Below are positions 17,174 through 59,778 of a stretch of 61,753 nucleotides of DNA, one piece after another. The translations under genes were made by a program, and so were the position numbers. Source of the DNA: Candidatus Omnitrophota bacterium (GTDB taxonomy: Bacteria > Omnitrophota > Gorgyraeia > 2-01-FULL-45-10). The notes under the pieces were generated by a model, which saw nothing but the letters and a program-made list of their open reading frames with translations, did not search any database and was not told the DNA's origin. Location: NCBI GenBank assembly GCA_043798375.1, contig JAZDOS010000038.1, positions 1 to 61,753 on the forward strand, written 5' to 3'. Position 1 is the first letter of the stretch. The number at the start of each line of letters is the position of its first letter.

Positions 17174-18236
17174 CACAGGCGGGATATCCAATTACATAGT
17201 CTCCTTATCCGGAGCGTTGAAAGAGAGGCTTGTCGATACCGTCGCGGCCTCGAGCGGCGGCAATATGGAGAAAGAATTACGGGACCGCGGGATACCGCAT
17301 AAGGCGCTTGAGATGGATACAAAATTCGAATTCGGCCCGAAGGTATTCAAATCGGCCTTAACACTTACCGGGATTATCAGGCAGGAAAAGATCGATATAA
17401 TCCATGCCCATTCCAGGGTCTCCCAGGCGGCGGCGTCTTTGGCGTCGATGATGTCCGGAGCGCCGCTTGTTACGACATGCCACGGCTATTTCCAGAAGAG
17501 GTCGAGGGGGGTTTTCGACACATGGGGTAAAAAGGTTGTCGCTATAAGCGACGCTGTTAAAACGCATCTGGAAGAAGACCTCGGCGTCAAGGCCGGCAGG
17601 ATCGAATTGATATATAACGGTGTGGATATAGATCAATTCTCGGGGCGTAGTTCCGATGAAGAGGTCGACAGGATAAGAAAAGAGCTTGGTGCGCGCGGCG
17701 GCCCCGTTATAGGAACCGTAGGCAGGCTTTCGCCTGTCAAGGGCCATAGGTTCCTGGTTGAAGCGATGCGCGATGTCGTTCGCGCCGCGCCGGATATCAG
17801 GTGCCTGATCGTCGGGAGCGGCGATGAGGAGTTCGAACTGAAAAACCTTGCGGGGTCGTTGGGGCTTAAGGACGCGATTCGTTTCTTTCCCTCTACTCCC
17901 GATACCCGCAGATTCCTGTCGGCCATGGATGTCTTTGTCTTTCCTTCGGTAAAGGAAGGGCTTGGTATCGCGCTTTTGGAGGCCTTCGCTTCAGGGAAGG
18001 CCTGCGTCGCGTCGGATACGGGGGGGATAGGTAACGTCGTGGAAGACGGCGTTACGGGGCTCCTCGTGCCGGTCGGCGATCCCCCGGCTATGGCCAAAGC
18101 CGTCCTGAAACTTATCGGAGACGCGCCGCTTCGAAGACAGCTGGGCGATAACGCCAGGGCGCTCGTCGTGAAAAAATTTACGCTGGACGAAATGGCGGCC
18201 AGAATGATCGAATTTTACAGGGGTGTAATCGGATGA
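17124..18236 (+). CDS. GT4 family glycosyltransferase
   Basis: GGISNY, GRLSPVKG, EGLGIALLEA; start could be TTG 17142. Confidence 0.88.
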   Translation: MRKRLELRVLQVTTHLNTGGISNYIVSLSGALKERLVDTVAASSGGNMEKELRDRGIPHKALEMDTKFEFGPKVFKSALTLTGIIRQEKIDIIHAHSRVSQAAASLASMMSGAPLVTTCHGYFQKRSRGVFDTWGKKVVAISDAVKTHLEEDLGVKAGRIELIYNGVDIDQFSGRSSDEEVDRIRKELGARGGPVIGTVGRLSPVKGHRFLVEAMRDVVRAAPDIRCLIVGSGDEEFELKNLAGSLGLKDAIRFFPSTPDTRRFLSAMDVFVFPSVKEGLGIALLEAFASGKACVASDTGGIGNVVEDGVTGLLVPVGDPPAMAKAVLKLIGDAPLRRQLGDNARALVVKKFTLDEMAARMIEFYRGVIG

Positions 18237-19063
18237 ACCCCGTTAGAAATATCTATTCATCAAAAGACTTGGAAAAAATTTCTAACGGGGTGAAGAAAAA
18301 AATAATTATAATATCAGCCGCCGTTATCGTATTTATTGCCGGAGCCGTTTTCTTTTATAAAATGGGCTATGTTGTCCCTGTTCTCATGTATCATTCGATA
18401 GATTATAACGACAGGGTTACAAAGCTGTCGCTATCTCCTGAAAGCTTCCGCCGCCAGATGGAATTTCTGCATAAGCGCCGGTATAACGTTCTGCCGCTCG
18501 AAAAAATCATTCCTTATATCGAGAAGAAAAAGAAGGTTCCGCCCGGAACGGTGGCGATCACTTTCGACGACGGTTACTACAATAACTATAAATACGCGTA
18601 TCCGGTTTTGAAAAAATATAATCTGCCGGCGACGATATTCGTGATCGTGAATAAGGTAGGCGCGCCCGGCTATCTTAACTGGAAAGAGATTAAGGAGATG
18701 TCGGATTCGGGCATAATCACCATAGGAAGCCATACGATGAACCATCTTTGGCTTCCGGATGTCGCGCCGCGGGTTCTGGAAAAAGAGGTTAAGGAGTCGA
18801 AAGAGATCCTCGAGAAAAGGCTGGGGAAGGATGTAAAGTTATTCTGTTATCCCATAGGGGCTCATGATAAAAAGGTGGAGAAGGCCGTTGAAGATGCGGG
18901 GTATGCGTGCGCGGTCGCGACAAATCCGGGAAGATTTAAGCCGACGGACGACATTTACGCCATCAAGAGGGTAAGGATCTCGCGCACATCCGACAATATG
19001 TTCGTATTCTGGGTCGAGACGAGCGGGATCTATACATGGATCAAAGAGCACAGAGATGAGTGA
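18233..19063 (+). CDS. Polysaccharide deacetylase (NodB/CE4)
   Basis: LMYH, TFDDG, GSHTMNH, YPIG; the first ~19 codons come from an inserted palindromic element. Confidence 0.88.
   Translation: MNPVRNIYSSKDLEKISNGVKKKIIIISAAVIVFIAGAVFFYKMGYVVPVLMYHSIDYNDRVTKLSLSPESFRRQMEFLHKRRYNVLPLEKIIPYIEKKKKVPPGTVAITFDDGYYNNYKYAYPVLKKYNLPATIFVIVNKVGAPGYLNWKEIKEMSDSGIITIGSHTMNHLWLPDVAPRVLEKEVKESKEILEKRLGKDVKLFCYPIGAHDKKVEKAVEDAGYACAVATNPGRFKPTDDIYAIKRVRISRTSDNMFVFWVETSGIYTWIKEHRDE
18238..18290. mobile_element. CCCCGTTAGA mini-element, copy 1 (53 bp)
   Basis: 13-bp TIR CCCCGTTAGAAAT/ATTTCTAACGGGG; TGAA duplicated at 18234-18237 and 18291-18294. Confidence 0.85.
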
Positions 19064-20072
19064 GCGGATTCTGATTATCAATGTCAACTGGATCGGAGAC
19101 GTCCTTTTCTCGACGCCGTTTATACGCGCCGTCCGGGAGGCGCATCCGGACGGCTATATCGCCTGCCTTCTCCATCCGCGATGCAGGGAGATGCTCGAGG
19201 ACAATCCGCGCCTGAACGAAATCATCGTCTATGACGAAGAGGGCGCGCATAAAAACCTCGCGGGGAAGATAAAGCTGATCGCCCGTTTGAGAAAGAAGAA
19301 TTTTGACACGGCATTTCTACTTCACAGGTCTTTTACCAAGGCGCTCGTCGCTAATCTTATGGGCGCGAAAAAGATAATAGGGTATCCGACGAAGAAGAGG
19401 GCAATTTTGCTTACCTCGCCGGTAGAGGAGCCGCAAGAGGAAACTCACAAGGTCGAATATTTTCTGAATATCGCTAGGTCCGCCGGCATAAGGCCCGGCA
19501 GCGTTTCGTATGAATTCTTCGTCAAAGACTCCGACAGGATTTTCGCCGAAAAGTTGCTGCGCTCGAACGGCATAGACGCGAAAGACAAAGTTGTCGTCCT
19601 TTGCCCGGGCGGAAACTGGGATCCGAAAAGGTGGCCGAAAGAGAATTTCGCGCATCTTGCCGACGAGCTCGCGGGCGAATTCGGAGTTAAGACAGTAATC
19701 TCCGGCACTGTCAGGGAAGCGGGCCTTGCCGAAGAGATAGCCGGTATGATGAAACACGCGCCTGTTATAATATGCGGTAAGACCACCTTAAAACAGCTGG
19801 CCGCGGTCTTCGAAAAGGCAAGCCTGGTGATAGCCAACGATACCGGCACGATGCACCTTGCCGTCGCGATGAAGGCGAGAACGATCGCGTTATTCGGCCC
19901 CACCTCGCCGAAGATAACAGGCCCTTACGGCGAAGGAAATTATAATGTGATATTTAAGAACGCTGCTTGCGACGTTCCGTGTTACGATATGGCCTGTACG
20001 GATAACAGGTGTATGGCCGCGATAACGGTTCAAGATGTATTTAAAAAGGCGGGAGAGGCGTTCAAACGATGA
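19056..20072 (+). CDS. waaF: LPS heptosyltransferase II-like (GT9)
   Basis: NWIGD, PKRWP, NDTGTMH, LFGPT. Confidence 0.8.
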   Translation: MSERILIINVNWIGDVLFSTPFIRAVREAHPDGYIACLLHPRCREMLEDNPRLNEIIVYDEEGAHKNLAGKIKLIARLRKKNFDTAFLLHRSFTKALVANLMGAKKIIGYPTKKRAILLTSPVEEPQEETHKVEYFLNIARSAGIRPGSVSYEFFVKDSDRIFAEKLLRSNGIDAKDKVVVLCPGGNWDPKRWPKENFAHLADELAGEFGVKTVISGTVREAGLAEEIAGMMKHAPVIICGKTTLKQLAAVFEKASLVIANDTGTMHLAVAMKARTIALFGPTSPKITGPYGEGNYNVIFKNAACDVPCYDMACTDNRCMAAITVQDVFKKAGEAFKR

Positions 20073-21046
20073 TCATCGACAAATCCGAAGTCAGGCGCAT
20101 GCTCGTCATAACCCTGAGTAATGTCGGCGATATAATCCTGACGACACCCGTCATACAAACGCTCGCAAAGACATTCCGCGAGGCAAGGATCGACGTGATG
20201 GTCGGCCCCGCGGGCGAGGAGATATTCGAGCGCGACCCAAACATCTTCAAAGTCATAATTTACGATAAACATCTCCCGATAGCCGAAAAACGCAGATTGC
20301 AGCTGAAGCTGAGAAAATTAAAATATGATCTCGTGGTCGATATCAGAAATACCGTATTTCCTCTTCTTATCGGCCCGAAGTACAGGACATCCGTTATTCA
20401 TAAATTCCCGCGCGCCAAGATCCACAGGAAGAAAAAACACCTCCATCTTTTAAAATCGCTTGGAATCGAGGAGTTCGAGGAGCGGTCTTATATCCATATT
20501 ACAAAGGAAGACGAGGAATATGTGGCGGGCCTTTTAAAGGATCGCGGCATAAAAGATCCGATAGTCGTGATAAACCCGGGCGCGAAGAGCCGCTTGAAGC
20601 GATGGACGGAGGAAGGTTTCGCCGTTTTCGCCGACAGGATCATATCGGAGTGCGAAGCAGATACCATATTCATCGGTTTAAGGGAGGATGAAGCGATAGT
20701 GAGCGGTATTACAGGCCGAATGAAGAATAAGGCGCACAGTTTCGTCAACAAGACCAATATCCGCCAGCTCGGAAGCCTTTTAAGGCGCGCGAAGCTTCTC
20801 GTTACGAATGACAGCGCGCCCCTCCACCTCGGATGCGCCGTTGGGACGAATGTTTTGGCGATATTCGGCCCTACCGACCCCGCCAAGTACGGGCCGACAG
20901 GCGAATTCGATACCGTTATAAAAAGAGAGCTCTCCTGCTCGCCGTGTGAGACGGCGGTATGCGCGCGCAATTATGAGTGTATGAAACTGATTACGCCGGA
21001 CGAAGTCTTCGACGCGGCGAAGGTGATGCTGGAGGGGTATGAATAG
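20069..21046 (+). CDS. GT9 family glycosyltransferase
   Basis: SNVGD, NPGA, KRW, NDSAPLH, IFGPT, CSPC. Confidence 0.85.
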   Translation: MIIDKSEVRRMLVITLSNVGDIILTTPVIQTLAKTFREARIDVMVGPAGEEIFERDPNIFKVIIYDKHLPIAEKRRLQLKLRKLKYDLVVDIRNTVFPLLIGPKYRTSVIHKFPRAKIHRKKKHLHLLKSLGIEEFEERSYIHITKEDEEYVAGLLKDRGIKDPIVVINPGAKSRLKRWTEEGFAVFADRIISECEADTIFIGLREDEAIVSGITGRMKNKAHSFVNKTNIRQLGSLLRRAKLLVTNDSAPLHLGCAVGTNVLAIFGPTDPAKYGPTGEFDTVIKRELSCSPCETAVCARNYECMKLITPDEVFDAAKVMLEGYE

Positions 21047-22112
21047 GATTACAGGGTGCAGGGTGCAGGGTGCAGGGTACAGAAAAATACTGATCGTGAG
21101 GCTCGACAGGATAGGGGATGTTTTGCTGTCGACGCCGGTGATCAAAAACTTAAGGGATGCGTATCCGAAAAGCTACATCGCTTTTCTGGTCAGGCCATAT
21201 GCCCGCGAGATTGTCCAGGGCAACCCCTATCTCGACGATGTTATCGTTTACGATAAGGCCGGCCGGGAAAAGGGCTTGCGCGGCAATTTAAAATTCATAC
21301 GTTATCTAAGAAAAAAGAAATTCGATATGGCGATAATACTTCATCCGACTAAGAGGGCGCATCTCGTCGCGTTCCTCGCCGGCATTCCCGTCCGGGTGGG
21401 ATATGACAGGAAATGGGGAATTCTGCTCACGAAGAGGATTCCCCATACAAAACAATCCGGTTTAAAGCATGAGATAGATTACACGCTCGACATTCTGCGG
21501 TATATAGGAGTAGAGCCGGAAGACAGGACGCTCTATATGCCGGTCGACACAGCTTGCGAAACCAGGGTCAGGGGTATGATGGGGGATGCGGGCATCACGG
21601 ATACCGATTTTTGCATCGCTATTAACCCCGGAGCAAGCTGCCCTTCGAAAAGATGGAAGACTATGAATTTCGCCAGGGCCGCGGATAGCCTGGCCAAAAC
21701 TTATAACGCGAAGATCCTGATTATATCGAGCGAAGAGGACAGGATGTTTGCCGGGGAAGTGGCCGCTCTCATGTCCAGGCCGCACGTCAACCTGGCGGGT
21801 AAGACCGGCATCGGAGACGTTGCGAGCGTATTGAGAAGGGTAAAGCTTTTCGTCTCGAACGATTCCGGGCCGGTCCATATCGCAGTCGCCGTCGGGACGC
21901 CGGTGATATCGATATTCGGCAGGTCCGACCGGGGGCTTTCGCCCGAGCGCTGGGGGCCGTCGGGTAAGCGCGACGTAGCGCTTCACAAGGATGCGGGCTG
22001 CGGCGCCTGCCTCGCGCACAACTGCCGGCGCGGTTTCAGGTGCCTCGATGCGATCACCGTCGACGACGTGCTCGCCGCGGCTGCGAAAATATTGGAGAGC
22101 AGGACTAATTAA
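21039..22112 (+). CDS. GT9 family glycosyltransferase
   Basis: DRIGD, NPGAS, KRW, NDSGPVH. Confidence 0.85.
   Translation: MNRITGCRVQGAGYRKILIVRLDRIGDVLLSTPVIKNLRDAYPKSYIAFLVRPYAREIVQGNPYLDDVIVYDKAGREKGLRGNLKFIRYLRKKKFDMAIILHPTKRAHLVAFLAGIPVRVGYDRKWGILLTKRIPHTKQSGLKHEIDYTLDILRYIGVEPEDRTLYMPVDTACETRVRGMMGDAGITDTDFCIAINPGASCPSKRWKTMNFARAADSLAKTYNAKILIISSEEDRMFAGEVAALMSRPHVNLAGKTGIGDVASVLRRVKLFVSNDSGPVHIAVAVGTPVISIFGRSDRGLSPERWGPSGKRDVALHKDAGCGACLAHNCRRGFRCLDAITVDDVLAAAAKILESRTN
21052..21079. repeat. In-frame heptamer tract (CAGGGTG)3 CAGGGTA
   Basis: Read directly; encodes TGCRVQGAGY at the GT9 N-terminus. Confidence 0.85.
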
Positions 22113-22142
22113 AAAACTTTAAAAAGAGGTGCCAGGCACCTT
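22104..22142. repeat. 39-bp dispersed repeat with AGGTGCC-A-GGCACCT palindrome (copy 2)
   Basis: 37/39 identical to 6571-6609. Confidence 0.85.
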
Positions 22143-22160
22143 GGGGAAAGGAAGGGCGGG

Positions 22161-23234
22161 GTGAAGATCGGACTGATAGGATTGCCGCAGGTAGGGAAGA
22201 AGACGCTTTTCGAACTCTTGACGCATCATAAGCCGTCGGAAAAGGAAGTTGCCTCCGGCAAGCCGATCAAGGGCGTAGTCGAGATAAAAGACCCGAGATT
22301 CGATAAGCTCGCCGCGTCCTACAAGCCGAAAAAAGAAGTGCGGGCGAGGATCGACATAGAGACGCTCCCCAGGATAGAAAAGGACACGATCGCCAAGGGC
22401 GAGATATTCTCCGACATAAACGAACTCGATGCCATATGCCACGTCGTAAGGAGCTTCAAAGATGATTCCGTATACCACGTCGACGGATCGGTCGACCCGA
22501 AGCGCGACATCGATTTCGTGAACGCCGAGCTCGTCCTGCACGACCTCATCTTTATCGAGAAGAGGATGGAGAGGCTCGAGAAGACGATAAAACAAACGAA
22601 GGAAGAGGCGGCGACTAAAGAAATGGAAGTTTTATCGAAACTGAAAGCGCATCTCGACAAGACGCTTCCCTTGAGGCTCATGGACATCGGCGCGGATGAT
22701 AAAAAACTTATTTCAAGCTATCCCTTTGTAACGCGGAAGGATATGATAGTAGTTCTTAATATATCAGAGGGCGACCTTAAAAAAACGGAACTTCCCGAAC
22801 AGCTGAAAAAGGAGCTTGGCCCGCTCAAAATAGACGTTATGCAGGTTTCCGCGAAAGTGGAGTCGGAGATCGCCGGCCTTGAATCGGAGGAAGAGAGAAA
22901 AGAGTTCCTGTCTTCTCTCGGCATAGAGGAGCCGGCTGTCAACGCCATGACGCGCGTCCTCCTGAAGGCCCTCGCCCTCATCTCTTTCTTTACTGTCGGC
23001 GAGGACGAAGTGAGGCAATGGACGGTGAGGCGCGGCTCTTCGGCTCCCGAAGCGGCAGGCGCGATACATTCGGACCTCGAAAAAGGTTTTATAAGAGCGG
23101 AGGTAATGAAGTATGAGGATTTGTCGGCGCTGGGCACGGAAAATAAAGTCAAGGAAGCGGGCAAGCTTTATCTCAAAGGTAAAGATTACATAGTCGAGGA
23201 CGGGGATATAATCAATATAAGGTTCAGCGTATAG
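22161..23234 (+). CDS. ychF: YchF-like ATPase (divergent G motifs)
   Basis: GLPQVGK, HVVRSF, SFFTVG, AGAIHSDLEKGFIRAEV, GKDYIVEDGD. Confidence 0.8.
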   Translation: MKIGLIGLPQVGKKTLFELLTHHKPSEKEVASGKPIKGVVEIKDPRFDKLAASYKPKKEVRARIDIETLPRIEKDTIAKGEIFSDINELDAICHVVRSFKDDSVYHVDGSVDPKRDIDFVNAELVLHDLIFIEKRMERLEKTIKQTKEEAATKEMEVLSKLKAHLDKTLPLRLMDIGADDKKLISSYPFVTRKDMIVVLNISEGDLKKTELPEQLKKELGPLKIDVMQVSAKVESEIAGLESEEERKEFLSSLGIEEPAVNAMTRVLLKALALISFFTVGEDEVRQWTVRRGSSAPEAAGAIHSDLEKGFIRAEVMKYEDLSALGTENKVKEAGKLYLKGKDYIVEDGDIINIRFSV

Positions 23235-23241
23235 AAACAGA

Positions 23242-23270
23242 TTGAAGCGCCGACGTTAATATGATAGGAT
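23242..23270 (+). promoter_or_regulatory. Putative sigma70 promoter
   Basis: TTGAAG-N17-TAGGAT with TGn extension; ATG 6 nt downstream. Confidence 0.4.
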
Positions 23271-23276
23271 TATAAC

Positions 23277-24113
23277 ATGAGAAAAATCATAATACTGCCG
23301 CTTATTATAGGCCTTACGTTCGGATTGTATGCCTGCGCCAAAAAACCTTCCGGTGATGACAGGGTGCTCGCCAGGGTAAGCAATAAATTTATCACCGTAA
23401 AAGATTTTAAAGCGAGGATAGCGAAGATACCTCCGTACTACCGGAATATAGTAGAGAAGGATAAGAAGAAATACCTGGACGAAGTGATGATACAGATGCT
23501 GTGTTACGAAGAGGCCGTAAGAGAGGGCATAGGCAGGGATAAGGAGATCCAGGAAGTAATCAATGAGGCCAGGAAAAAAATATTGATAGCGAAGCTTATC
23601 AAGGATGAAGTCGAGGACAGGATGAGCGTCTCCGAGGACGAAATAAGGAATTTTTTCGAAACGCATAGGGATGAATTTAAAGCACCGGAACTGTGGCGGG
23701 CGTCTCATATATTGGTAAATGATGAGAAAGAGGCTTCGGGGCTTGCGGACGAATTGGCCAGGGGCGCCTCCTTTGAAGACCTGGCGAGGAAGCATTCCAC
23801 CGACGCGACCGCAAGCCGCGGAGGCGACGTCGGGTATTTCAGGAGAGGCCAGGTTGTGCCGGATTTCGAAAAGGCGTGCATAAAGTTAAACGTGGGTGAG
23901 ACGAGCCCCATCATCCGGACACAATTCGGTTATCATATAATTAAACTCACCGACAGGAAAGATCCGGGGCTGCAGAATTATGAGGAAGCGAAGGGCTCCA
24001 TAGAGAACGAGCTGAAACGCAAAAAACGAAGCGACCTCTTCAACAAGCTCGTATTGAAGCTTAAGAGCAAATATGGCGTTGAGGTCAAGGAGGACGTATT
24101 CAATTCCTTATGA
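23277..24113 (+). CDS. Parvulin-type peptidyl-prolyl isomerase lipoprotein (PrsA/PpiC-like)
   Basis: Signal peptide with Cys; ASHILV, FEDLARKHS, GGDVG, TQFGYHIIK. Confidence 0.88.
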   Translation: MRKIIILPLIIGLTFGLYACAKKPSGDDRVLARVSNKFITVKDFKARIAKIPPYYRNIVEKDKKKYLDEVMIQMLCYEEAVREGIGRDKEIQEVINEARKKILIAKLIKDEVEDRMSVSEDEIRNFFETHRDEFKAPELWRASHILVNDEKEASGLADELARGASFEDLARKHSTDATASRGGDVGYFRRGQVVPDFEKACIKLNVGETSPIIRTQFGYHIIKLTDRKDPGLQNYEEAKGSIENELKRKKRSDLFNKLVLKLKSKYGVEVKEDVFNSL

Positions 24114-25063
24114 AAAAAATAGTCCTGACACAGTTAATTCTCGCGATGATCCTGGCGACAGCGTGCCTTTCGCGCGGCGAGGTCGTTGATAAAATAGCCA
24201 TAGTGGTAAACGACGAAATCATAACCGAGAGCGAAATCACCAGGTCGCTCCAGCCGGTATACGAGAAATACAGGGTTTTATACAGCCATGACAAGCTTTT
24301 CGCGAAACTCGAGGAGGCGAAGCAGAAGATAATCCAGCAGTTCATCGATGACAGGCTGATCCTGAGCGAAGCCAAAAAACTTAACGTTGAGGTCGACGAG
24401 CAGGAAGTGGATAAGAGGATAGACGACCTCATAAAACGCCTGGGCTCGAGGGCGGCGTTCGAAAGGACGCTCTCCGAACAGCGCATTACCCTGAGAGACC
24501 TGAAAACGCGCTACAGGGAACAGTTGATGACCAGAAAGCTTATAGACCAGGAGGTGGGGTCCAGGATAACGATAACCCCGATTGACATAACGAATTATTA
24601 TAACGAAAACACAGATGAATTCAGCCAGCCGGAAGAGATCAAGTTAAAAAATATTCTCATAAGCGTGAAAAATGACGCGGATTCGAAAAAAGCGGCGAAG
24701 CTTGCCCGGGATATTTCGAAGCGGCTTAAGGAAGGGTGCGATTTCGCAGGGCTGGCAAAGGTGTATTCGGCCGGCCCCGGCGCCTCAGAAGGCGGAGATA
24801 TGGGATACGTCAAAAAAGGCGACCTTATGCCCGAGATAGAGAAAGCCGTTTTTAATCTTAAAACGGGCGAGACGTCCGATATCATACAGACGAAACTTGG
24901 CTATCACATATTCATGGTGGAGGAGAAGAAGCCGGCTAGAACGCTTACAATTTCGGAAGCCAGGCGCGATATCGAGGAAGCGATATTCCGGGAAAAGATC
25001 AACCAGAAGGTCAGGGGATGGGTAGAGGGCTTAAAGAAGAATGCCTACATCGCGTTCAAATAA
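24110..25063 (+). CDS. surA: SurA-like chaperone/PPIase
   Basis: VDKIAIVVNDEIIT N-domain plus parvulin domain; surA-pdxA-rsmA synteny. Confidence 0.8.
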   Translation: MKKIVLTQLILAMILATACLSRGEVVDKIAIVVNDEIITESEITRSLQPVYEKYRVLYSHDKLFAKLEEAKQKIIQQFIDDRLILSEAKKLNVEVDEQEVDKRIDDLIKRLGSRAAFERTLSEQRITLRDLKTRYREQLMTRKLIDQEVGSRITITPIDITNYYNENTDEFSQPEEIKLKNILISVKNDADSKKAAKLARDISKRLKEGCDFAGLAKVYSAGPGASEGGDMGYVKKGDLMPEIEKAVFNLKTGETSDIIQTKLGYHIFMVEEKKPARTLTISEARRDIEEAIFREKINQKVRGWVEGLKKNAYIAFK

Positions 25064-26006
25064 GCCGTCTTTAGCGATAACGATGGGCGACCCTTCGGGC
25101 GTCGGGCCGGAGGTCACGCTGAAAAGTTTGGCAAGTCCGCGCGTTTTAGGGCTTGCCGATTTTTTGGTTATAGGCGACCGTTTTGTTATCGACCGGTGTA
25201 AAATCGACCTGGGCCTCGATCTCAAAGCCGATCTTCTCGACCTGTCGAACGTTCCCCGAAGATCGTTTTCCTACGGAAAGGTAAGCCCCGTATTCGGCAG
25301 GGCCTCGATGCAGTATATAGACGCCGCTCTTGACGTTATAGCGCGCCGCCGGGCCGGCGGGCTTATCACGGCGCCGATAAATAAAACTTCGGTCAAAGCG
25401 GCGGGTTTTAAAAATTTTCAGGGACACACGGAATATCTCGCGCAGGAAACCGGTATTGAAAAATTCGCCATGCTATTCGTGGGGCCGGCGCTAAAGGTCG
25501 CGCTCGTCACGCGCCACATTCCGTTAAAACGCGTCGCCGAAGAATTGAATAAAGACGCCGTTTATAACGCCATATCGCTTACACACAGATATTTAAAGCG
25601 TTACTTCCGCCTTAAGGCGCCGAGAATAGGCGTCATGGGCCTTAATCCTCATGCGGGCGAGGGAGGCTCATTCGGAGACGAGGAAAAGAGTGTCATATCA
25701 CCCGCCATAAGGAGGGCATCGCGTTCGATAAAAAATATTTTCGGGCCCCTGCCGGCCGATACCGCTTTTCACGACGCGCTGGATAAGAAGTACGATGCCC
25801 TGGTTGCCATGTACCACGACCAGGCGCTTACCGCCTTCAAGGCGCTCTATTTTAATAACGGTGTAAACATGACGCTCGGCCTTCCCTTTATAAGGACCTC
25901 TCCGGACCACGGCACAGCCTTCGACATAGCGGGCGGGGGCGCGGCAAATCCCGAGTCGATGATAGAGGCGATTATACTCGCCGCGCGCCTCGCCTCGAGA
26001 AAATAA
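25041..26006 (+). CDS. pdxA: 4-hydroxythreonine-4-phosphate dehydrogenase
   Basis: TMGDPSGVGPE, GHTE, LNPHAGE, MYHDQ, RTSPDHGTAFDIAG. Confidence 0.95.
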   Translation: MPTSRSNKPSLAITMGDPSGVGPEVTLKSLASPRVLGLADFLVIGDRFVIDRCKIDLGLDLKADLLDLSNVPRRSFSYGKVSPVFGRASMQYIDAALDVIARRRAGGLITAPINKTSVKAAGFKNFQGHTEYLAQETGIEKFAMLFVGPALKVALVTRHIPLKRVAEELNKDAVYNAISLTHRYLKRYFRLKAPRIGVMGLNPHAGEGGSFGDEEKSVISPAIRRASRSIKNIFGPLPADTAFHDALDKKYDALVAMYHDQALTAFKALYFNNGVNMTLGLPFIRTSPDHGTAFDIAGGGAANPESMIEAIILAARLASRK

Positions 26007-26007
26007 G

Positions 26008-26859
26008 ATGCTTACCAAAAGCCGCTTACTGGACGTATTTTCAAAATACAATTTCATGCCTCTTAAAAGGCTCGGCGGGAATTATCTCATCGACGGAAAC
26101 ATCAGGGACAAGATAATCCGCGAGTGCCGTCTCTCGAAATCCGATTCGGTTCTCGAGATAGGGCCGGGCCTGGGCGCCCTCACCATGGACCTGGCCGCAT
26201 CCGGCGCCCGGGTCTTTGCCGTCGAGATAGATAAGAAGGCATACGCGATATTGAACGAATTGGCCGGAGGCGATTATCCGAACCTTAAGATCTTCAACAA
26301 GGATATCTTGAAATTCGATCTTGAGAAGATCGCTCAAGGCGGCAGGATAAAAGTTGCGGGCAACATCCCTTATTACATAACTACCCCTATAATTGAATAT
26401 CTGATAAATAACAGGCATCTCCTGGAATCCGCCGTCATCATGGTCCAGAAGGAAGTTGCCAATCGCCTCCTGGCAGGCCCCGGTGAGAAAGATTACGGCT
26501 CCGTGAGCTGCTTCGTCCGGTATTTTACGCGTCCGGAATACATATATACGGTGAAGAGGGCCTCTTTTTTCCCGATGCCGGATGTCGATTCGAGCATCTT
26601 AAGGCTTACATTTCTTGATAAGCCGTCCGTATCCGTAAATGACGAAGAAAAATTTTTCAGGATCGTAAGGGGGTCTTTCAACCAGAGGCGAAAGTCTATC
26701 ATCAATTCGCTCGCCAGAGTCGAGGTCCTCGATATGCCGAAAGAGAAGTTGTCCGCTATTTTAAAGAGCGTCGGCATCGCGTCTTCCGCCCGCCCCGAAA
26801 CGCTCGGGATGATCCAATTCGCCGCCATCTCCAACGCCATTTCCCAGTCTCCCGATTGA
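26008..26859 (+). CDS. rsmA: 16S rRNA m6,2A dimethyltransferase
   Basis: EIGPGLG, NIPYYIT, MVQKEVA, QRRK. Confidence 0.95.
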   Translation: MLTKSRLLDVFSKYNFMPLKRLGGNYLIDGNIRDKIIRECRLSKSDSVLEIGPGLGALTMDLAASGARVFAVEIDKKAYAILNELAGGDYPNLKIFNKDILKFDLEKIAQGGRIKVAGNIPYYITTPIIEYLINNRHLLESAVIMVQKEVANRLLAGPGEKDYGSVSCFVRYFTRPEYIYTVKRASFFPMPDVDSSILRLTFLDKPSVSVNDEEKFFRIVRGSFNQRRKSIINSLARVEVLDMPKEKLSAILKSVGIASSARPETLGMIQFAAISNAISQSPD

Positions 26860-26884
26860 CAAAGGGTTATTCCTGTGGTAACTT
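26856..26884 (+). promoter_or_regulatory. Putative sigma70 promoter for gatCAB
   Basis: TTGACA-N17-TAACTT with TGn extension. Confidence 0.55.
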
Positions 26885-26905
26885 ATATTGAAACGGAAGG
26901 TTCGC

Positions 26906-27205
26906 GTGAAAACCATAGATAAAGCTGTCGTCAAACACGTTGCGCACCTGGCGCGGTTATCTTTAAACGATAAGGAGCTCGAAGCCTATTCCGGCCAATT
27001 AGCGGCTATTCTATCTTATATAAGCAAATTAAATGAAGTAGATACAAATAATGTCCCCCCGACCAGCCATGCCATTTCGACGCTTAAGAACGTATTTAGA
27101 ATTGACGCCTTAAAACCTTCTCTTAGCGCGGATGATGCGCTGGCTAACGCGCCTCAAAAAGAGGAAGGCTTCTTCAAGGTTCCTCAGGTCATAGAAGGCA
27201 AGTAG
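26906..27205 (+). CDS. gatC: Asp/Glu-tRNA amidotransferase subunit C
   Basis: VAHLARL, NAP, FFKVPQVI; GTG start 26906 preferred. Confidence 0.92.
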   Translation: MKTIDKAVVKHVAHLARLSLNDKELEAYSGQLAAILSYISKLNEVDTNNVPPTSHAISTLKNVFRIDALKPSLSADDALANAPQKEEGFFKVPQVIEGK

Positions 27206-27210
27206 ATGAA

Positions 27211-27258
27211 CCCCGTTAGACCTTTTAATATGTCTGGCGGGGAGGAGGTCTAACGGGG
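27211..27258. mobile_element. CCCCGTTAGA mini-element, copy 2 (48 bp)
   Basis: 13-bp TIR CCCCGTTAGACCT/AGGTCTAACGGGG; TGAA duplicated at 27207-27210 and 27259-27262. Confidence 0.85.
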
Positions 27259-28688
27259 TGAAAAATCTTTATTCGCTTACAGCTCACGCCCTTAAGGAAT
27301 TGATGGAAAAGGATCGTCTTCAACCTTCCAAAATCTCCGAGGACGTCTTCGGGCGCATCAAGGCTGTCGACGGGCGGGTAAAGGCGGTCGTGCGCGTAAA
27401 CAGGACAAAATCTTCAGGGGTGAAGGCCGGCGGCAGACTCTCCGGCCTACCCGTCCTTCTAAAAGATAATATATGCGAGAAGGGCGAAGAGACGACATGC
27501 GCCTCAAAGATACTGGCAGGTTTTAAACCTCCTTATAGCGCGACGGTCGTCAAAAAGCTCGAAGAGGCCGGCGCCGTCATTATAGGAAAGGCCAACATGG
27601 ATGAGTTCGCCTTCGGCTCTTCGTGCGAGACTTCCTGTTACGGGCCTACGAAAAATCCGTGGGATCTCGGCCGGATCCCGGGCGGCTCGAGCGGAGGCGC
27701 CGCGGCGGCGGTCGCGGCGGACGAGACGATCCTGGCGCTCGGTTCGGATACGGGCGGCTCGATCAGGCAGCCGGCCGCGTTGTGCGGAGTGGTGGGCTTG
27801 AAGCCTACGTATGGCCGCGTGTCGCGCTACGGACTGATCGCGTTCGCGTCAAGCCTCGACCAGATCGGCCCGATAACGAAGGATGTGGAAGACGCCGCGC
27901 TCCTATTAGGCGTTATCGCGGGCCACGATGAGATGGATTCCACATCAGTCGATAAAACTGTCCCCGATTACACCAAATCATTGATTAAAGATGTGAAAGG
28001 CCTGCGTATCGGCGTCCCCAAAGAATATTTTATCAAGGGAATCGACAAGGAAGTTGAGGCGCATGTTTTAAAGGGCATAGATATTCTTAAAAGTTTAGGC
28101 GCGAAAGTTACCGAAATATCCTTGCCTCACACGGAATATGCCGTTAGCGCGTATTATATCGTGGGCCCCGCCGAGGCGAGCTCAAACCTCGCGAGATTTG
28201 ACGGCGTCCAGTACGGTTTCAGGGCCGAAGACCCTGATAATATGATAGACATGTATGTCAAGACGCGCTCGGAAGGATTCGGGGACGAGGCGAAGAGAAG
28301 GATACTCCTCGGGACATACTGCCTGTCGACGGGATACTACGACGCTTATTACCTGAAGGCTCAGAAGGTAAGGACCAGGATCAAGGAAGATTTCGAGAAC
28401 GCGTTCAATGCCTGCGACTGCATAATTACGCCGACGACGCCCGCGCCGGCATTCAAGATCGGCGAGAAGATGAACGACCCTTTAAGCATGTACCTGTCCG
28501 ATATATTTACGATACCGGCTAACCTGGCGGGTATCCCGGGAATGTCGGTGCCGTGCGGTTTTTCGAAAGACGGGCTTCCGATAGGATTGCAGATACTCGC
28601 GAAACCTTTTGATGAAGAGACGATATTCAGGGCCGCTTATACATTTGAGCAGGCGACCGATCACCACAGGAAGAAACCGGAATTATGA
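27258..28688 (+). CDS. gatA: Asp/Glu-tRNA amidotransferase subunit A
   Basis: [30 protein letters not shown]; the GTG start is formed at the element junction. Confidence 0.96.
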
Positions 28689-30160
28689 GCTATGAGACGG
28701 TAATAGGGCTTGAGGTCCACCTGCAGCTCGCGACGAATACAAAGGCCTTCTGCGGCTGTTCGACGAAATTCGGCGCCGAGCCGAATTCGCACACCTGTCC
28801 GGTCTGCCTCGGATTTCCGGGGGCGTTGCCGGTCCTGAATGAACAGGCGTTCCTCTTTTCTATCAAGGTCGCGCTGGCGCTGGATTGTAAGATCCAGGAC
28901 CTTATCAAGTTCGACAGAAAAAATTATTACTATCCGGACCTTCCGAAAAATTTCCAGATATCGCAATACGATATGCCGCTATCCTATAACGGTTCGCTGG
29001 AAATAACCGTAAAAGGCAAAACCAGGAAAAAGATCAGGATCAGGCGCGTTCATCTTGAAGAGGATGCGGGTAAGCTGGTCCATCCCGTTAGAAACTCCGT
29101 TTCTAACGGGATCCATCCCGAAGGCAAGCGCTCGAGCCTCGTCGATTACAATAGGGGCGGTATGCCGCTTCTCGAGATCGTTACGGAGCCGGATATCAAT
29201 TCGCCCGATGAGGCGTATGAATATCTTACGAAGCTGAAATCGATCCTCGGGTACCTCAGGGTTTCCGACTGCGACATGGAGAAAGGGTCGCTCAGATGCG
29301 ACGCCAATATATCGATCAGGCCCGGGGTGTCCGGTAAGCTCGGTACGAAGGTCGAACTCAAGAACATGAATACATTCAAAGGCGTCCGCTCGGCCCTTGA
29401 GCATGAAGTAAACCGGCAGGAATCGATCCTTGAGGGCAAAGGCGAAATTGCGCAGGAGACACGGCTCTGGAACGCCGAGAAAGAGATCACGACGTCGATG
29501 CGCACCAAAGAAGAAGCCGAGGACTACAGGTATTTCCCTGAGCCCGATCTCGTGCCGTTTATAGTCGATAAGGATTTGATCGGGCGCGTAAAAGAAAGCC
29601 TCCCCGAACTTCCCGAGGCAAAATTAAACAGATTCGTAAAGGATTTCGGGCTTTCGGAATACGACGCCAATGTCCTGACAAGCCAGATAGACATAGCCGA
29701 TTATTTCGAAGAATGCGCCGGGCTCTATCCGAACAGAAAAACCATATCCAACTGGGTCACCGGCGAGATTTTGGCGGTATTGAACGATAAATTTATCGGA
29801 ATCAGGGACATGAAGCTCCCGCCGCGCGGCCTTGCGGAGCTGTTGAAGATGATCGATGAAGGCGCCATAAGCGGGAAGATGGCAAAGGCTATCTTCGCCG
29901 AAGCGGTCGAGACCGGCGCCGGCCCGAAAGAGATCGCCGAAAAGCGCGGCCTTTCCCAGATAAGCGACCGGAAACTGATAGAGGAGATGGTGGAAGCGGT
30001 CATCAGGAGCCAGGCGAAGACCGTCAACGATTACAGGTCGGGTAAATCGAACGCGCTCGCGTTTCTGATCGGCCAGATAATGAAAGAGTCGCGAGGGAAA
30101 GCGAATCCGGCGCTCGTCAACGAAATCCTTAAGAGTAAACTGGAGGGCGGACAAATTTGA
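28685..30160 (+). CDS. gatB: Asp/Glu-tRNA amidotransferase subunit B
   Basis: [39 protein letters not shown]. Confidence 0.96.
29083..29111. mobile_element. CCCGTTAGA mini-element, copy 3 (29 bp, in frame in gatB)
   Basis: TCCCGTTAGAAAC-TCC-GTTTCTAACGGGA; TCCA duplicated at 29079-29082 and 29112-29115. Confidence 0.85.
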
Positions 30161-31464
30161 AACTGAATGACAGGAGAACGAAAGTTTTTATCTTTGCCGC
30201 TCTTCTTGTTCTTGTCTCGCCGCTCGCATTAAGCGGCGGCTCCGATAACACTAAGGACAAAAACGTTAAAGTAAAAACAAAAGAGAACCTTTACGGGCAG
30301 CTCGAATTGTTTGCCGACGCGGTAAGCCTCGTAAAGAGCGACTACGTCGATGAAGTCGAATCGAAGAAACTGATGTACGGCGCGATGAATGGAATGCTTT
30401 CGTCGCTCGATGATTACAGCGCGTTCATGGAGCCGGACGAGTTCAAAGAGATAAAAGAGGAGGCAAAAGGCGAATTCGGCGGGATCGGCATCGAAATCTC
30501 GTATAAAGACGGGATTCCGGCCGTGATCACCCCTATAGTCGGCACGCCCGCGGAAAGAGCCGGCATACAGCCCGGCGACAGGATCGTCAAGATCGACGGA
30601 AAGTCCACGAGGGATATCGCGTTGAATGATGCCGTTAAAATTCTTCGCGGTCCTCCCGGCACATCGGTAACGATCACCGTGTGGAGGGAGAAGGACCAGT
30701 TGGTGCTCGACATACCGATAAGACGCGCTATGATAAAGATACGCAGCATAAGGAAAGCAGAGTTTATCGAAGATAAGATCGGATATATAAAACTCGTCGA
30801 GTTTCAGGAAAATACGCCGCGCGACCTCGAAGAGGCGTTGAAGAAACTCGAATCCCGGGGCATGACGGCGCTCATACTCGACCTGCGGTATAATCCGGGC
30901 GGGCTGCTCGACGTTGCGGTGGACGTTGCCGAAAAATTTATACCGAAGGATAAAATCATCGTCTCGCTGAAGTCGCGGAACGCCGAACAGAACGCGGTCT
31001 TTAAGTCGAGCGGCAAGCTGTGTCACCCCGATTATCCGCTCGTGGTGATGGTGAACGAAGGTTCCGCGAGCGCTTCCGAGATCGTGGCCGGCGCGATCCA
31101 GGATAATTCGCGCGGGATAGTGCTTGGCCGGAAGACGTTCGGCAAGGCGTCGGTCCAATCGGTAATCCCCATGAAGGATGGTTCGGCGCTCCGGCTTACC
31201 TCGGCGTTGTATTATACGCCGAGCGGCAAACTGATACGAAGCCTGGGCATATCGCCCGATGTTGTGGTCGAGAGGGAAAATCTCACGGCGAAGAAGAAGG
31301 CCGGGCCGGAAGAAATTTTCGAAAAAGCGGAAAAGAACCGGAAGGGCGCGGTAAAAAGAGAGGAAGATCTCTCGGATGAAAAAGACGAAAGGGATAACCA
31401 GCTCGAGATGGCGGTCAATCTGATAAAAGCGATGAGTATCTATAAGTCGAAGGAATTGCGATGA
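30157..31464 (+). CDS. ctpA: Carboxy-terminal processing protease (S41, CtpA-like)
   Basis: PDZ GGIGI, DLRYNPGG, SASASEI, TFGKASVQ. Confidence 0.9.
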   Translation: MKLNDRRTKVFIFAALLVLVSPLALSGGSDNTKDKNVKVKTKENLYGQLELFADAVSLVKSDYVDEVESKKLMYGAMNGMLSSLDDYSAFMEPDEFKEIKEEAKGEFGGIGIEISYKDGIPAVITPIVGTPAERAGIQPGDRIVKIDGKSTRDIALNDAVKILRGPPGTSVTITVWREKDQLVLDIPIRRAMIKIRSIRKAEFIEDKIGYIKLVEFQENTPRDLEEALKKLESRGMTALILDLRYNPGGLLDVAVDVAEKFIPKDKIIVSLKSRNAEQNAVFKSSGKLCHPDYPLVVMVNEGSASASEIVAGAIQDNSRGIVLGRKTFGKASVQSVIPMKDGSALRLTSALYYTPSGKLIRSLGISPDVVVERENLTAKKKAGPEEIFEKAEKNRKGAVKREEDLSDEKDERDNQLEMAVNLIKAMSIYKSKELR

Positions 31465-31465
31465 A

Positions 31466-31564
31466 CCCCGTTAGACCTTTTGATAAATATATTCTTTATA
31501 GGTATAAAAGGTATTATATATGAACATATACTTTAACCATATAATAAAGAGGGGTCTAACGGGG
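31466..31564. mobile_element. CCCCGTTAGA mini-element, copy 4 (99 bp, AT-rich interior)
   Basis: 12-bp TIR CCCCGTTAGACC/GGTCTAACGGGG; TGAA duplicated at 31462-31465 and 31565-31568. Confidence 0.85.
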
Positions 31565-32379
31565 TGAAGCCCAGGATAATTATAGCAGCCGTTTCGATAT
31601 TGGGCGTAATTTTAATCGCCGGGCTTTTTTTTTGGCTCGGCCGGGAAACGCGGCGGCCGCCGAAAATAGCCGAAAAGAAAGCCGCAAAAGTAACGGCGCC
31701 TGTACCTAAGGCCGCGAAACGCGCGAAGGTAGCGATAGTGATGGACGATTTCGGGTACAACATGAATGATCTCGATACGCTATTTTCCATCAATGAGCCG
31801 ATAACGCTGTCGATACTGCCCAGCCTGAGATACTCGAAGACGATCGCGGAATATGCCCGCGGCCGCGGTTACGAGGTTATCCTGCACCTTCCTCTTGAGC
31901 CGCACAGAAAAGATGTGAAAGAAGAGGCCGATACGATCAGATCCGGGATGGCCGATACCGAGATCGTCTCAAGGCTCGCGAAAGAGATTGAGAGTGTGCC
32001 GGGGGCAAGCGGCGTCTCCAACCACATGGGTTCGAAATCTACGGAAGATAAAGAGCTGATGGCGGCCATATTCAGGTATCTGAAGAACCGCCGCCTCTAT
32101 TTTTTTGACAGCCTGACCTCGGAAAAATCCGTATGCCGGGAAACTGCCGAAGCGGCCGGACTGAAATATGCCAGACGGGATATATTTCTGGATAATACGG
32201 ACAGGCGCGAATACATCGAGAAACAGCTTGCGGCTCTCAAAAGGATGGCTCTTAGAAAAGGCCGCGCCATAGCGGTCTGCCATGACAAAAAATTCACGAT
32301 AGCGGCGCTCGCGAAAATGATGCCTCAGATGGCGAAAGACGGCATCGAATTCGTAACGCTTTCGGATATGGTGCGGTGA
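31564..32379 (+). CDS. Divergent polysaccharide deacetylase (YibQ-like)
   Basis: AIVMDDFG, HLPLEP, NHMGS, FFDSLT, RDIFLD; follows the S41 protease. Confidence 0.88.
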   Translation: MKPRIIIAAVSILGVILIAGLFFWLGRETRRPPKIAEKKAAKVTAPVPKAAKRAKVAIVMDDFGYNMNDLDTLFSINEPITLSILPSLRYSKTIAEYARGRGYEVILHLPLEPHRKDVKEEADTIRSGMADTEIVSRLAKEIESVPGASGVSNHMGSKSTEDKELMAAIFRYLKNRRLYFFDSLTSEKSVCRETAEAAGLKYARRDIFLDNTDRREYIEKQLAALKRMALRKGRAIAVCHDKKFTIAALAKMMPQMAKDGIEFVTLSDMVR

Positions 32380-33428
32380 TGCTTACGCTCGGCATAGAGA
32401 CATCCTGCGACGAGACGAGCGTCTCGGTTACCAGGGGCGTGAAAGTTCTTTCGAATATCGTGACCTCGAGCGTCCATCTTCACAAGAAGTATGGCGGCGT
32501 GGTGCCTGAGATAGCGTCGAGATACCACGTCGAATTTATAATAGAGGTGCTTAAGGCGGCGTTAAAGAGTTCGAAAAAAGATTTGGACGATATGAAGCTC
32601 GTGGCAGTCACGAACGGCCCGGGATTGGTAGGCGCGCTTCTTGTCGGCATATCTCTGGCAAAATCGATCAGCTATAGCCTGGGGCTTCCCATTATAGGCG
32701 TCAATCATATACTGGCGCATCTTTACAGCTCGTTTCTGAACCCCGTTAGAAAAAAGTTTTCTAACGGGGTGAACGAAAGCGATAAACCGAAGTTTCCTTT
32801 TGTGGGGCTCGTGGTTTCCGGCGGGCACACGGCTTTATTTCACTGCGAAAGGGTGGGAAGAGAGAGGCTTCTCGGCCAGACGCAGGACGACGCCGTGGGC
32901 GAGGCGTACGATAAGGTCGCCAAACTCTTAGGGCTCGGGTATCCGGGCGGGCCGGTAATCGAGAAAATGGCAAGGCAGGCGAAGGGATTAAATAAGATAA
33001 ATTTCCCGAAAAGCTACCTCGGAAAAGATTCGCTCGATTTCAGTTTCAGCGGAATCAAGACGGCGGTTCTTTATTATGTAAATAAATTACGCATTACGCA
33101 TTACGCATTACGCATTACGGATATTGCCGACATCTGCCGCGCGTTCCAGGAAGCCGCCCTCGATGTCCTGGTCGAAAAGGCGATATTGGCCGGCCGGATC
33201 ACGGATTGTTCCAGGATAGTGGCGGGCGGAGGTGTTGCCGCGAACACCAGGCTCAGGGAGAAGCTCGGGGCGGCATGCGAATTTTCTTCTATGAATTTAC
33301 ATTTTCCTGAGTTAAAATACTGTCTGGACAATGCCGCGATGGTGGGAGCGCTTGGAGAAGAGCTTTACAGGCTTGGCCTTAAGTCGGACTTGTATTTAAG
33401 CGCCGAGCCAAATCTTAACATAAGTTAA
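32379..33428 (+). CDS. tsaD: tRNA N6-threonylcarbamoyltransferase
   Basis: GIETSCDET, GGVVPEIASR, HILAH, VSGGHT, DDAVGEAYDK, FSFSGIKT, DNAAM. Confidence 0.96.
   Translation: MLTLGIETSCDETSVSVTRGVKVLSNIVTSSVHLHKKYGGVVPEIASRYHVEFIIEVLKAALKSSKKDLDDMKLVAVTNGPGLVGALLVGISLAKSISYSLGLPIIGVNHILAHLYSSFLNPVRKKFSNGVNESDKPKFPFVGLVVSGGHTALFHCERVGRERLLGQTQDDAVGEAYDKVAKLLGLGYPGGPVIEKMARQAKGLNKINFPKSYLGKDSLDFSFSGIKTAVLYYVNKLRITHYALRITDIADICRAFQEAALDVLVEKAILAGRITDCSRIVAGGGVAANTRLREKLGAACEFSSMNLHFPELKYCLDNAAMVGALGEELYRLGLKSDLYLSAEPNLNIS
32741..32769. mobile_element. CCCCGTTAGA mini-element, copy 5 (29 bp, in frame in tsaD)
   Basis: CCCCGTTAGAAAA-AAG-TTTTCTAACGGGG; TGAA duplicated at 32737-32740 and 32770-32773. 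Confidence 0.88.
33086..33120. repeat. In-frame heptamer tract (ATTACGC)4 ATTACGG in tsaD
   Basis: Read directly; encodes LRITHYALRIT. Confidence 0.9.
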
Positions 33429-59336: not shown

Positions 59337-59461
59337 TGATTGCGGAAATTTCCAACTATATCTAACTTTTTTATAATCTTACCTAGTTTCATAATTCCTT
59401 TAATTACAATAAGTTACAATCCTTATATATTAAATTTTAAGAGACTAAAAACCAAGACCCC

Positions 59462-59489
59462 TTGACACTTGCGGATCTTGTGGTAAGCT
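59462..59489 (+). promoter_or_regulatory. Putative sigma70 promoter
   Basis: TTGACA-N16-TAAGCT with TGn extension. Confidence 0.5.
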
Positions 59490-59538
59490 TTAAGTACTTA
59501 AAAACTTATTCTCGCTTGGCAGAAAGTGGTGAGAATAA

Positions 59539-59778
59539 ATGAAGGTTCTGGTCACCGTCAAAAGAAGCCCCGCGCACAGCTACTTAATCCACCTCTTTAC
59601 CAAAAATCTGATCAGGGAAATCCGCAAACTTATCGATAATAATAATCATCACAGGGCGTGTGCCTTCGCCCTGGCGAGAGGTGTTGTTGTCAGGGAAGTG
59701 CTGCGCGATGAGATTCCTAATGTGCATGCCGACCTGATCCTGTCGGAAAATAACGCGAGGTGGGACCTGACCCCTTGA
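59539..59778 (+). CDS. Small hypothetical protein
   Basis: 79-aa ORF downstream of the promoter and bracketed by a 16-bp direct repeat; no recognised motif. Confidence 0.55.
   Translation: MKVLVTVKRSPAHSYLIHLFTKNLIREIRKLIDNNNHHRACAFALARGVVVREVLRDEIPNVHADLILSENNARWDLTP

Follow-up and report, generated by a model that had tools for sequence, protein, structure and literature searches.

A 61,753-nt stretch of a Candidatus Omnitrophota bacterium (contig JAZDOS010000038.1 of assembly GCA_043798375.1, forward strand; hereafter the window) carries five short palindromic insertions that belong to a family of very small mobile elements. Each insertion is bounded by a 4-bp duplication, all five sites are empty in same-genus genomes, and elsewhere in the source genome the same family ends enclose the gene of a small GIY-YIG nuclease. 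The family is probably best explained as an element resembling an insertion sequence (IS), together with short derivatives resembling transposable elements of the miniature inverted-repeat type (MITEs), moved by the GIY-YIG nuclease. That the nuclease moves the elements, and how it might do so, we infer from its association with the family ends and from the anatomy of the coding copies. We also hold it possible, though somewhat short of probable, that the coding form of ~265–283 nt is a complete autonomous transposon whose sole protein is this nuclease of ~90 residues.

The exact 9-mer CCCGTTAGA showed 10 matches in the window, five per strand, against a chance expectation (hand arithmetic) of ~0.5 matches in 2 × 61.7 kb. 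These 10 cores formed five inverted pairs, and all five copies shared the layout Y-CCCGTTAGA...TCTAACGGG-R, bounded by an exact 4-bp direct repeat (Table 1). A sequence-only reading of the window had described a gene-sparing miniature mobile element with five copies at these positions, inverted repeats of 12–13 bp, and flanking repeats of TGAA four times and TCCA once. The arm pairing and the repeats, read again from the sequence, agreed with that description. Its statement that three copies add a multiple of three was also correct (57, 33, and 33 nt, counting the element plus one repeat). Copies 1, 2, and 4 lie on ATGAA, where a new GTG had been proposed; in the list of open reading frames (ORFs), the starts called at 27258 and 31564 were GTG codons that combine the terminal G with the duplicated TG, and a start at 18290 is possible.

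The source genome comprises 1.46 Mb in 58 contigs, and the window is its contig C4. Exact cores occurred 47 times in forward and 52 times in reverse orientation, resulting in 44 paired elements with a length of 26–277 nt. Flanking 4-mers were identical in 36 of the 44, so the duplication noted in the window extends genome-wide. When the compared 4-mers were moved outward by 4, 8, and 12 nt, identity was seen in 0, 0, and 1 of 44, respectively. The outer base pair was C..G in 27 elements, T..A in 16, and T..G in 1. The duplicated 4-mers comprised 13 different words, every one of the form YNNR, and TGAA or TGAG (taken in one orientation) accounted for 23 of the 36 duplications. An A preceded 20 of these 23 TGAR duplications, giving ATGAR, versus 32% of all TGAR words genome-wide. 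Some elements were nested inside others. As a side observation, there were also tandem elements with one common 4-bp repeat, or elements nested just within another's arm (L222, L209, and L130; in the source genome C23:24511-24643, C49:82573-82705, and C32:7314-7447), an arrangement that suggests a preference for insertion beside an existing hairpin.

Copies deep inside genes (more than 430 nt inside long open frames on both sides) added a multiple of three in 5/5 cases, and the hosts identified for in-frame intragenic copies were GatB, TsaD, and FGAM synthase. With the duplications and the empty sites, this bears out the gene-sparing character claimed for the element.

The five window sites were uninterrupted in same-genus genomes, as the sequence-only reading had anticipated for close orthologues. 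In DNA alignments with one of these genomes (G001), the gap was exactly the element plus one repeat at copies 2, 3, 4, and 5; at copies 3 and 5 it was a 33-nt gap, for copy 3 at the exact position. The copy 1 site was uninterrupted in the other same-genus genome (G002). GatB of G001 showed 89% identity and was shorter by 11 residues, and these 11 residues were missing in 20/20 orthologues from relatives that span the site. Neither of the two same-genus genomes held a short copy. Because the sites are empty and the same-genus genomes lack short copies, the window insertions postdate a recent split.

The longest copy in the source genome lies outside the window (C23:1300-1578) and holds an 86-residue ORF between family ends. 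Its product matched Pfam GIY-YIG PF01541 (E 1.5e-17, residues 1–68 of 86), and the nearest solved structure by sequence was 1zg2, UPF0213 protein BH0048 (E 8.8e-8). Nuclease matches in the source genome were found on contigs C23 and C8 only and none on C4, in line with the earlier remark that the window contains no transposase. The same reading had proposed looking for a long copy with a transposase. A long coding copy was indeed found on C23, but its gene encodes a GIY-YIG nuclease of ~86 residues and not a classical transposase. Small GIY-YIG homologues were present in 37/41 related genomes. Among the closest homologues in relatives, that of G023 was bounded by family ends with a TGAG duplication and others had ends altered on both arms by compensating changes; more distant homologues had other CCC...GGG repeats with TGAA or TGAG duplications.

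A metagenome scan for two cores 235–265 nt apart returned at least 123 end-bounded stretches of 253–283 nt, and a nuclease homologue of 50–79% identity was present in 96/123 among the matches listed. The same long pattern, applied to viral contigs as a chance control, gave 3 stretches, 0 with a nuclease gene and 0 with a duplication. The anatomy of the long form was counted in 93 nuclease copies with enough flank, among the metagenome matches listed. An ORF of at least 60 residues was kept in 88 of them, mostly with 83–91 residues. Tyr5, Tyr16, Gly18, Arg26, His30, Glu50, Arg61, and Glu62 were each present in at least 94% of 82 aligned proteins. Up to five coding copies occurred per genome (G175), and another genome had three.

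Exact duplications bounded 35 of the 93 coding copies; read in the ORF orientation, 22 were TGAA and none was TTCA, which indicates that the orientation of the coding form is fixed relative to the site. In 29 of these 35, an ATG or GTG was formed by the preceding base and the first two bases of the left duplicate. For 18 of the 29, one open frame led from this host start across the left arm (M-N-P-V-R) and the entire nuclease and on through the right arm. Of the 88 ORFs, 57 took their stop codon from the opening 3 nt of the right flank and 15 from a TAA within the arm. The terminal purine and the TG of the right duplicate rebuild the host start, which overlaps the nuclease stop. The coding element is too tightly filled to accommodate a promoter; its translation apparently relies on host signals and is then handed on to the gene of the host.

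A different route of spread would be homing, as known for free-standing GIY-YIG homing endonuclease genes: the nuclease would cut empty sites and the element would be copied from the filled allele by recombinational repair. A group I intron endonuclease model of NCBIfam did match the C23 protein weakly (29 bits, cut-off 56), and coding copies strongly prefer one site type, ATGAA. However, homing makes no target duplications and needs homologous flanks, whereas one genome here shows 13 different duplicated 4-mers at unrelated loci, and the 93 nuclease copies lay in 83 distinct flank contexts. We consider this explanation very improbable.

In the explanation that we favour, with movement by the nuclease, the five window palindromes are non-coding members of a very small transposable-element family. 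The element ends are an inverted repeat of 10–13 bp, Y-CCCGTTAGA plus three variable complementary bases, with the whole element able to fold as a hairpin, and the target duplication is 4 bp of the form YNNR, mostly TGAA or TGAG on a start codon. The coding form of ~265–283 nt carries one ORF, which encodes a single-domain, Ssn-type GIY-YIG nuclease of 83–95 residues. This ORF starts, in many copies, at the host ATG in the left duplicate, runs through both arms, and ends in L-T-G, with a TGA/TAA stop from the right duplicate overlapping the regenerated host ATG/GTG. The terminal hairpin, in DNA that is single-stranded or extruded, may be what the nuclease recognises, and the enzyme may cut a few nt beyond the foot of the hairpin, in the manner of SsnA. 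Target cuts with a 4-nt stagger, followed by host repair and ligation, would produce the duplication, and short copies consisting of arms only would be moved in trans.

That the elements survive in a compact genome would follow from ends that do no harm whatever the reading frame. In frame one the right arm reads S-N-G, in frame two it gives a TAA stop 4 nt before the regenerated start, and in frame three it reads L-T-G, followed by a TGA stop that overlaps the start. The DNA hairpins of the elements had predicted energies of −12 to −15 kcal/mol. Arm positions 10–12 were fully complementary in 69/124 copies with 14 different triplets in use, which indicates that the pairing itself is maintained, beyond the sequence. 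A search of Rfam gave two sub-threshold chance matches only (30 and 28 bits versus cut-offs of 85 and 153).

Copy 1 either adds its 57 nt in frame or provides the new GTG at 18290, and its RNA hairpin showed −22 kcal/mol (z −4.2). In copy 2 a short ORF now runs from the former ATG to the TAA of the right arm, and a GGAGG lies 9 nt upstream of the new GTG 27258. The RNA hairpin of copy 2 (−31 kcal/mol) pairs this GGAGG within its stem. As the GGAGG is sequestered in the hairpin, gatA is likely translated by coupling to the short upstream ORF. Copy 3 adds 11 codons to gatB, giving a peptide with PVR...SNG. At copy 4 the S41 peptidase gene is still terminated by the left TGA, and the right end supplies the GTG start 31564 of a divergent polysaccharide deacetylase gene. 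Copy 5 adds 11 in-frame codons to tsaD, and its RNA hairpin had −25 kcal/mol (z −7.1).

Table 1. Copies of the element in the window and the genes that carry them (added length is the element plus one repeat).
Feature	Position (strand)	Span of 9-nt core pair	Structure or state	Added length (nt)	Location	Pfam match
Copy 1	18234..18294	18239-18289	TGAA + 53-nt element (18238-18290) + TGAA	57	on ATGAA start, polysaccharide deacetylase gene	
Copy 2	27207..27262	27212-27257	TGAA + 48-nt element (27211-27258) + TGAA	52	gatC stop / gatA start	
Copy 3	29079..29115	29084-29110	TCCA + 29-nt hairpin (29083-29111) + TCCA	33	within gatB	
Copy 4	31462..31568	31467-31563	TGAA + 99-nt element (31466-31564) + TGAA	103	splits ATGA stop/start overlap	
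Copy 5	32737..32773	32742-32768	TGAA + 29-nt hairpin (32741-32769) + TGAA	33	within tsaD	
gatA	27258-28688 (+)		carries copy 2, ORF intact			Amidase, E 3e-154
gatB	28685-30160 (+)		carries copy 3, ORF intact			GatB_N, E 3e-117
tsaD	32376..33428 (+)		carries copy 5, ORF intact			TsaD, E 3e-84

Two of these copies have close counterparts elsewhere in the source genome. The gatB insertion and the insertion in the FGAM-synthase gene (C2:18856-18892, L006) consist of one and the same 29-nt hairpin, inserted in opposite orientations. Each is bounded by TCCA duplications with TCC following, and the protein reads ...HPVRN.VSNGIHP... in each. Copy 2 shares a common interior of 46–48 nt, with GGAGGAGG before the right arm, with C49:25947-25992 and C43:9800-9847. 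All three copies of this sub-family contain a ribosome-binding site and point towards a gene start.

GGAGG was found 9 nt upstream of the regenerated start in 10 of the 23 start-codon copies. Such copies, and the wide occurrence of small GIY-YIG homologues in relatives noted above, would suit a system kept by the host, in which an Ssn-like nuclease restricts incoming single-stranded DNA (ssDNA) at hairpins, the hairpins are retained for restriction or as translational couplers, and their spread is a by-product. The sole studied relatives act in this way (PMC11893778, available portion). Such a role is compatible with a mobile origin. As the explanation of the family, it is quite improbable, because the distribution is patchy (short copies in 17/41 relatives and 0/2 same-genus genomes), the window sites are empty in the nearest genomes, and copies lie within essential genes. 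The pattern looks like a recent invasion and not like a conserved host function.

Short forms were present in 82/401 genomes sampled across the phylum, whereas a reversed-pattern control over the same 401 genomes matched 4 genomes, with one match each. In a scan with one genome per species, at least 117 stretches matched the short pattern. An exact 4-bp duplication was found in 82/147 copies among the matches listed (loci L001–L127, from other genomes). The records with verified copies were labelled Omnitrophota, many Patescibacteria lineages, Nitrospirota, Nitrospinota, and Thermodesulfobacteriota/Syntrophaceae, and further Phycisphaerae, Sedimentisphaerales, some Gammaproteobacteria bins, and one Aenigmatarchaeota bin. 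For records with the coding form the labels were Omnitrophota, Patescibacteria, Nitrospirota, Thermodesulfobacteriota, Planctomycetota, and one archaeal bin. As these records are metagenome bins, lone odd labels may be binning errors. Viral contigs gave 77 matches to the short pattern, with a duplication in 9 and arms of at least 12 bp in 9. The other observation on this set is that 68 of the 77 (within L322–L399) had 9-nt arms only and no duplication, with lengths clustered at 22–28 nt. Phage was dropped as a vector, since most viral matches lacked the duplication and the long arms, and the three long viral stretches lacked the nuclease and the duplication.

Several results weigh against movement by the nuclease. 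To our knowledge, GIY-YIG nucleases cut DNA and have no known joining activity, which leaves the joining step without an explanation. The perfect 4-bp duplication was missing in 58 of the 93 nuclease copies listed, and the nuclease copy on C23 also lacked a clean duplication. Unequal flanks recurred as TTTA/TGAA (9) and TTCA/TAAA (7), which are reverse complements as 8-mers. They represent one 8-mer read from either strand and would fit an insertion into TTTA|TGAA that makes no duplication, or another process, which hints at a second insertion mode.

The coupling of long and short forms is also incomplete. Short copies occurred in 15/27 genomes with the long form versus 67/374 without it, where related genomes are not independent and the 27 are matches to the end pattern, at least one of which (G089) does not look like a nuclease ORF. 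Among genomes with at least 10 short copies, 8/12 had no exact-ended long form, including the richest (41 copies), and 12 genomes had long forms and no short copies. A hairpin variant, CCCGTAAGT, flanks one nuclease gene, and short copies of it were found in 0/41 genomes. Interiors of the 60–170-nt copies showed no similarity to the nuclease gene beyond nested ends. This lack of similarity rules out the MITE interiors as simple deletion derivatives of the nuclease gene.

The missing nuclease form in those eight high-copy genomes and the unrelated interiors would be expected if the short copies were ordinary MITEs of a conventional transposase family with a 4-bp duplication, the autonomous copy being unsampled and the GIY-YIG gene a passenger. 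DDE elements are classically marked by inverted repeats with a fixed 4-bp duplication, and the IS5, IS701, and IS1380-like families make 4-bp duplications. We regard this explanation as unlikely. In loci L001–L127 and the source genome, no pair of ends 300–6000 nt apart with equal flanks enclosed a transposase, and every pair in this range could be attributed to separate small copies. ORFs of at least 150 residues were clustered over the flanks of L001–L127, and the recurrent families were ordinary housekeeping ones (sigma-54 activators, ABC ATPases, kinases, etc.). PF13701 (DDE_Tnp_1_4) had 0 matches in the source genome, self-BLAST of that genome revealed no multicopy IS, and a solo end on contig C34 was surrounded by ordinary genes only. 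A recognised transposase (DDE, HUH, or Ser/Tyr) was not found between family ends; the only gene there was the GIY-YIG nuclease. Moreover, a passenger should not turn up in 96 of the 123 listed stretches, all within a narrow size class, and its ORF should not use the arms and the duplication as its first and last codons.

Related arrangements were seen around other small GIY-YIG genes. A sister dialect, CCCGTTACA...TGTAACGGG, formed short hairpins in 7/41 relatives, with 8 copies in G011. Its loci include G012, G038, and, in the source genome, C23:14873-14899 and C49:138457-138483; in G038 a nuclease gene ends within a CCCGTTACA...TGTAACGGG arm. Quite different inverted repeats bounded small GIY-YIG genes at L135, L142, L129 (second ORF), L145, L149, L156, and L157. 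Most of these repeats begin with CCC and end with GGG, and L135 and L142 have TGAA or TGAG duplications on ATGAR. Nucleases bounded by repeats may therefore be a general architecture that exists in many repeat 'dialects'.

A second group of small GIY-YIG proteins, with 40–47% identity to the C23 protein, has ORFs that end inside the 5' end of a tRNA gene. ARAGORN placed the start of a tRNA-His, Asn, Glu, or Arg in the last ~25 nt of the ORF at 9/10 loci (L132, L136-L141, L144, L146, and L147, from G026, G014, G013, G022, G016, G015, G009, G008, G005, and G019). Apparent partial tRNA copies lie upstream of these ORFs. Elsewhere in the window, genome self-BLAST detected a 413-nt repeat shared by positions 59358-59769 and contig C12:3025-3436, with 96% identity.

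The link between Ssn nucleases and hairpin repeats dates only from 2025, and the mobility of the pair was left as a hypothesis in the available portion of that work. That missing genetic signature is supplied by the present family: its target sites are duplicated, sister genomes have the sites empty, some copies are nested, and a single genome can hold several coding copies. What would be new is a candidate autonomous form of less than 300 nt with an Ssn-like nuclease, that is, a mobile variant of the system described in 2025. If the nuclease is the mobilising enzyme, the transposition chemistry would lie outside the DDE, HUH, and recombinase classes, in an element of less than 300 bases. If the ~265–283-nt form is autonomous, insertion sequences would gain a new class, and no smaller self-mobilising DNA element would be known from cells. 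Every base of this form would be coding, with one start codon borrowed from the host and one handed back at the other end.

The family also offers a model of parasite life in very compact genomes, landing on start codons and rebuilding them. Residence in gatA, gatB, tsaD, and purL, with 11-residue loops, would be explained by this rebuilding of starts together with ends that are harmless in all three frames. The hairpins will mislead gene callers on start sites, and nuclease–hairpin pairs are candidates for sequence-specific tools acting on single-stranded DNA.

Literature searches revealed no described IS or MITE with these termini, an outcome in favour of the sequence-only reading. The 9-mer CCCGTTAGA returned only eukaryotic papers among the matches listed, and queries combining GIY-YIG with terminal inverted repeats and target site duplications, MITE, YhbQ, or Rickettsia palindromic elements returned nothing relevant. 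The searches found no follow-up of the Ssn paper and no other prokaryotic GIY-YIG transposon with inverted repeats and duplications. A likeness to integron attC sites and CRISPR repeats was dropped, as arm polarity and duplications do not fit.

Bacterial MITEs of DDE insertion sequences, of which Correia elements are an example, share with this family the terminal inverted repeats, a fixed duplication, many short non-coding copies, and effects on the expression of neighbours. Unlike in these MITEs, no DDE transposase was found with the family ends, the arms covary beyond the conserved core, and the smallest copies of 26–29 nt consist of two arms and a 3-nt loop. In REP/REPIN-RAYT and IS200/IS605, an HUH tyrosine enzyme cuts and rejoins DNA without target duplication. 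The likeness here is a hairpin repeat recognised as ssDNA by a small nuclease whose gene is bounded by repeats; the differences are the GIY-YIG enzyme and the 4-bp duplication. IS1380 and piggyBac-like elements have CC ends, a 4-bp duplication, and a DDE_Tnp_1_4 transposase, the family without a match in the source genome.

The Rickettsia palindromic element had been proposed as the nearest analogy. Ogata et al. in 2000 reportedly described elements of ~100–150 bp in one genus, with no defined duplication or partner gene. By description, both systems consist of palindromes inserted in frame within genes, adding a peptide while the gene survives. Also by description, the present family differs in its size of 26–135 nt, its many phylum labels, its 4-bp duplication, and its candidate enzyme. 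The analogy is thus fair for the in-frame insertions, but the Rickettsia element is not the nearest system, as the Ssn nucleases are closer (PMC11893778, available portion).

The closest published system is that of the Ssn nucleases with NTS/SRM hairpin repeats (Chenal et al. 2025, PMC11893778), and the following statements refer to the available portion of that paper. SsnA is a 94-residue single-domain GIY-YIG protein whose gene is flanked by the repeats. Its binding to the hairpin is restricted to ssDNA, its cut falls in the variable flank a few nt upstream, and the substitutions Y6A, Y17A, or E64A abolish its activity. In Neisseria, incoming ssDNA is restricted at the hairpins by the nuclease, and NTS repeats are rarely inside genes (2%). 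The authors remark that the layout resembles an insertion sequence, suggest domestication, and cite REP/REPIN-RAYT and IS200/IS605 as analogy; the words 'duplication', 'MITE', and 'Omnitroph' do not occur in the available text. Rickettsia is listed among the genomes with more than 300 SRM repeats, so the kinship with the Rickettsia palindromic element may be real, and the two kinds of repeat may belong to one wider system.

The family described here is like the Ssn system in its single-domain GIY-YIG protein of ~90 residues, with Y5/Y16/E62 corresponding to Y6/Y17/E64 of SsnA, and in a gene bounded by hairpin-forming repeats that are also dispersed through the genome. It is unlike that system in that its gene is enclosed by the two arms of a single hairpin and not by two complete hairpins. 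The published SRM pattern fitted 0/44 elements with 15-nt flanks on either strand, with 7 matches genome-wide. The present family further differs from the available description of Ssn in its 4-bp duplications, its empty sites, its nested copies, and its in-frame insertions in genes.

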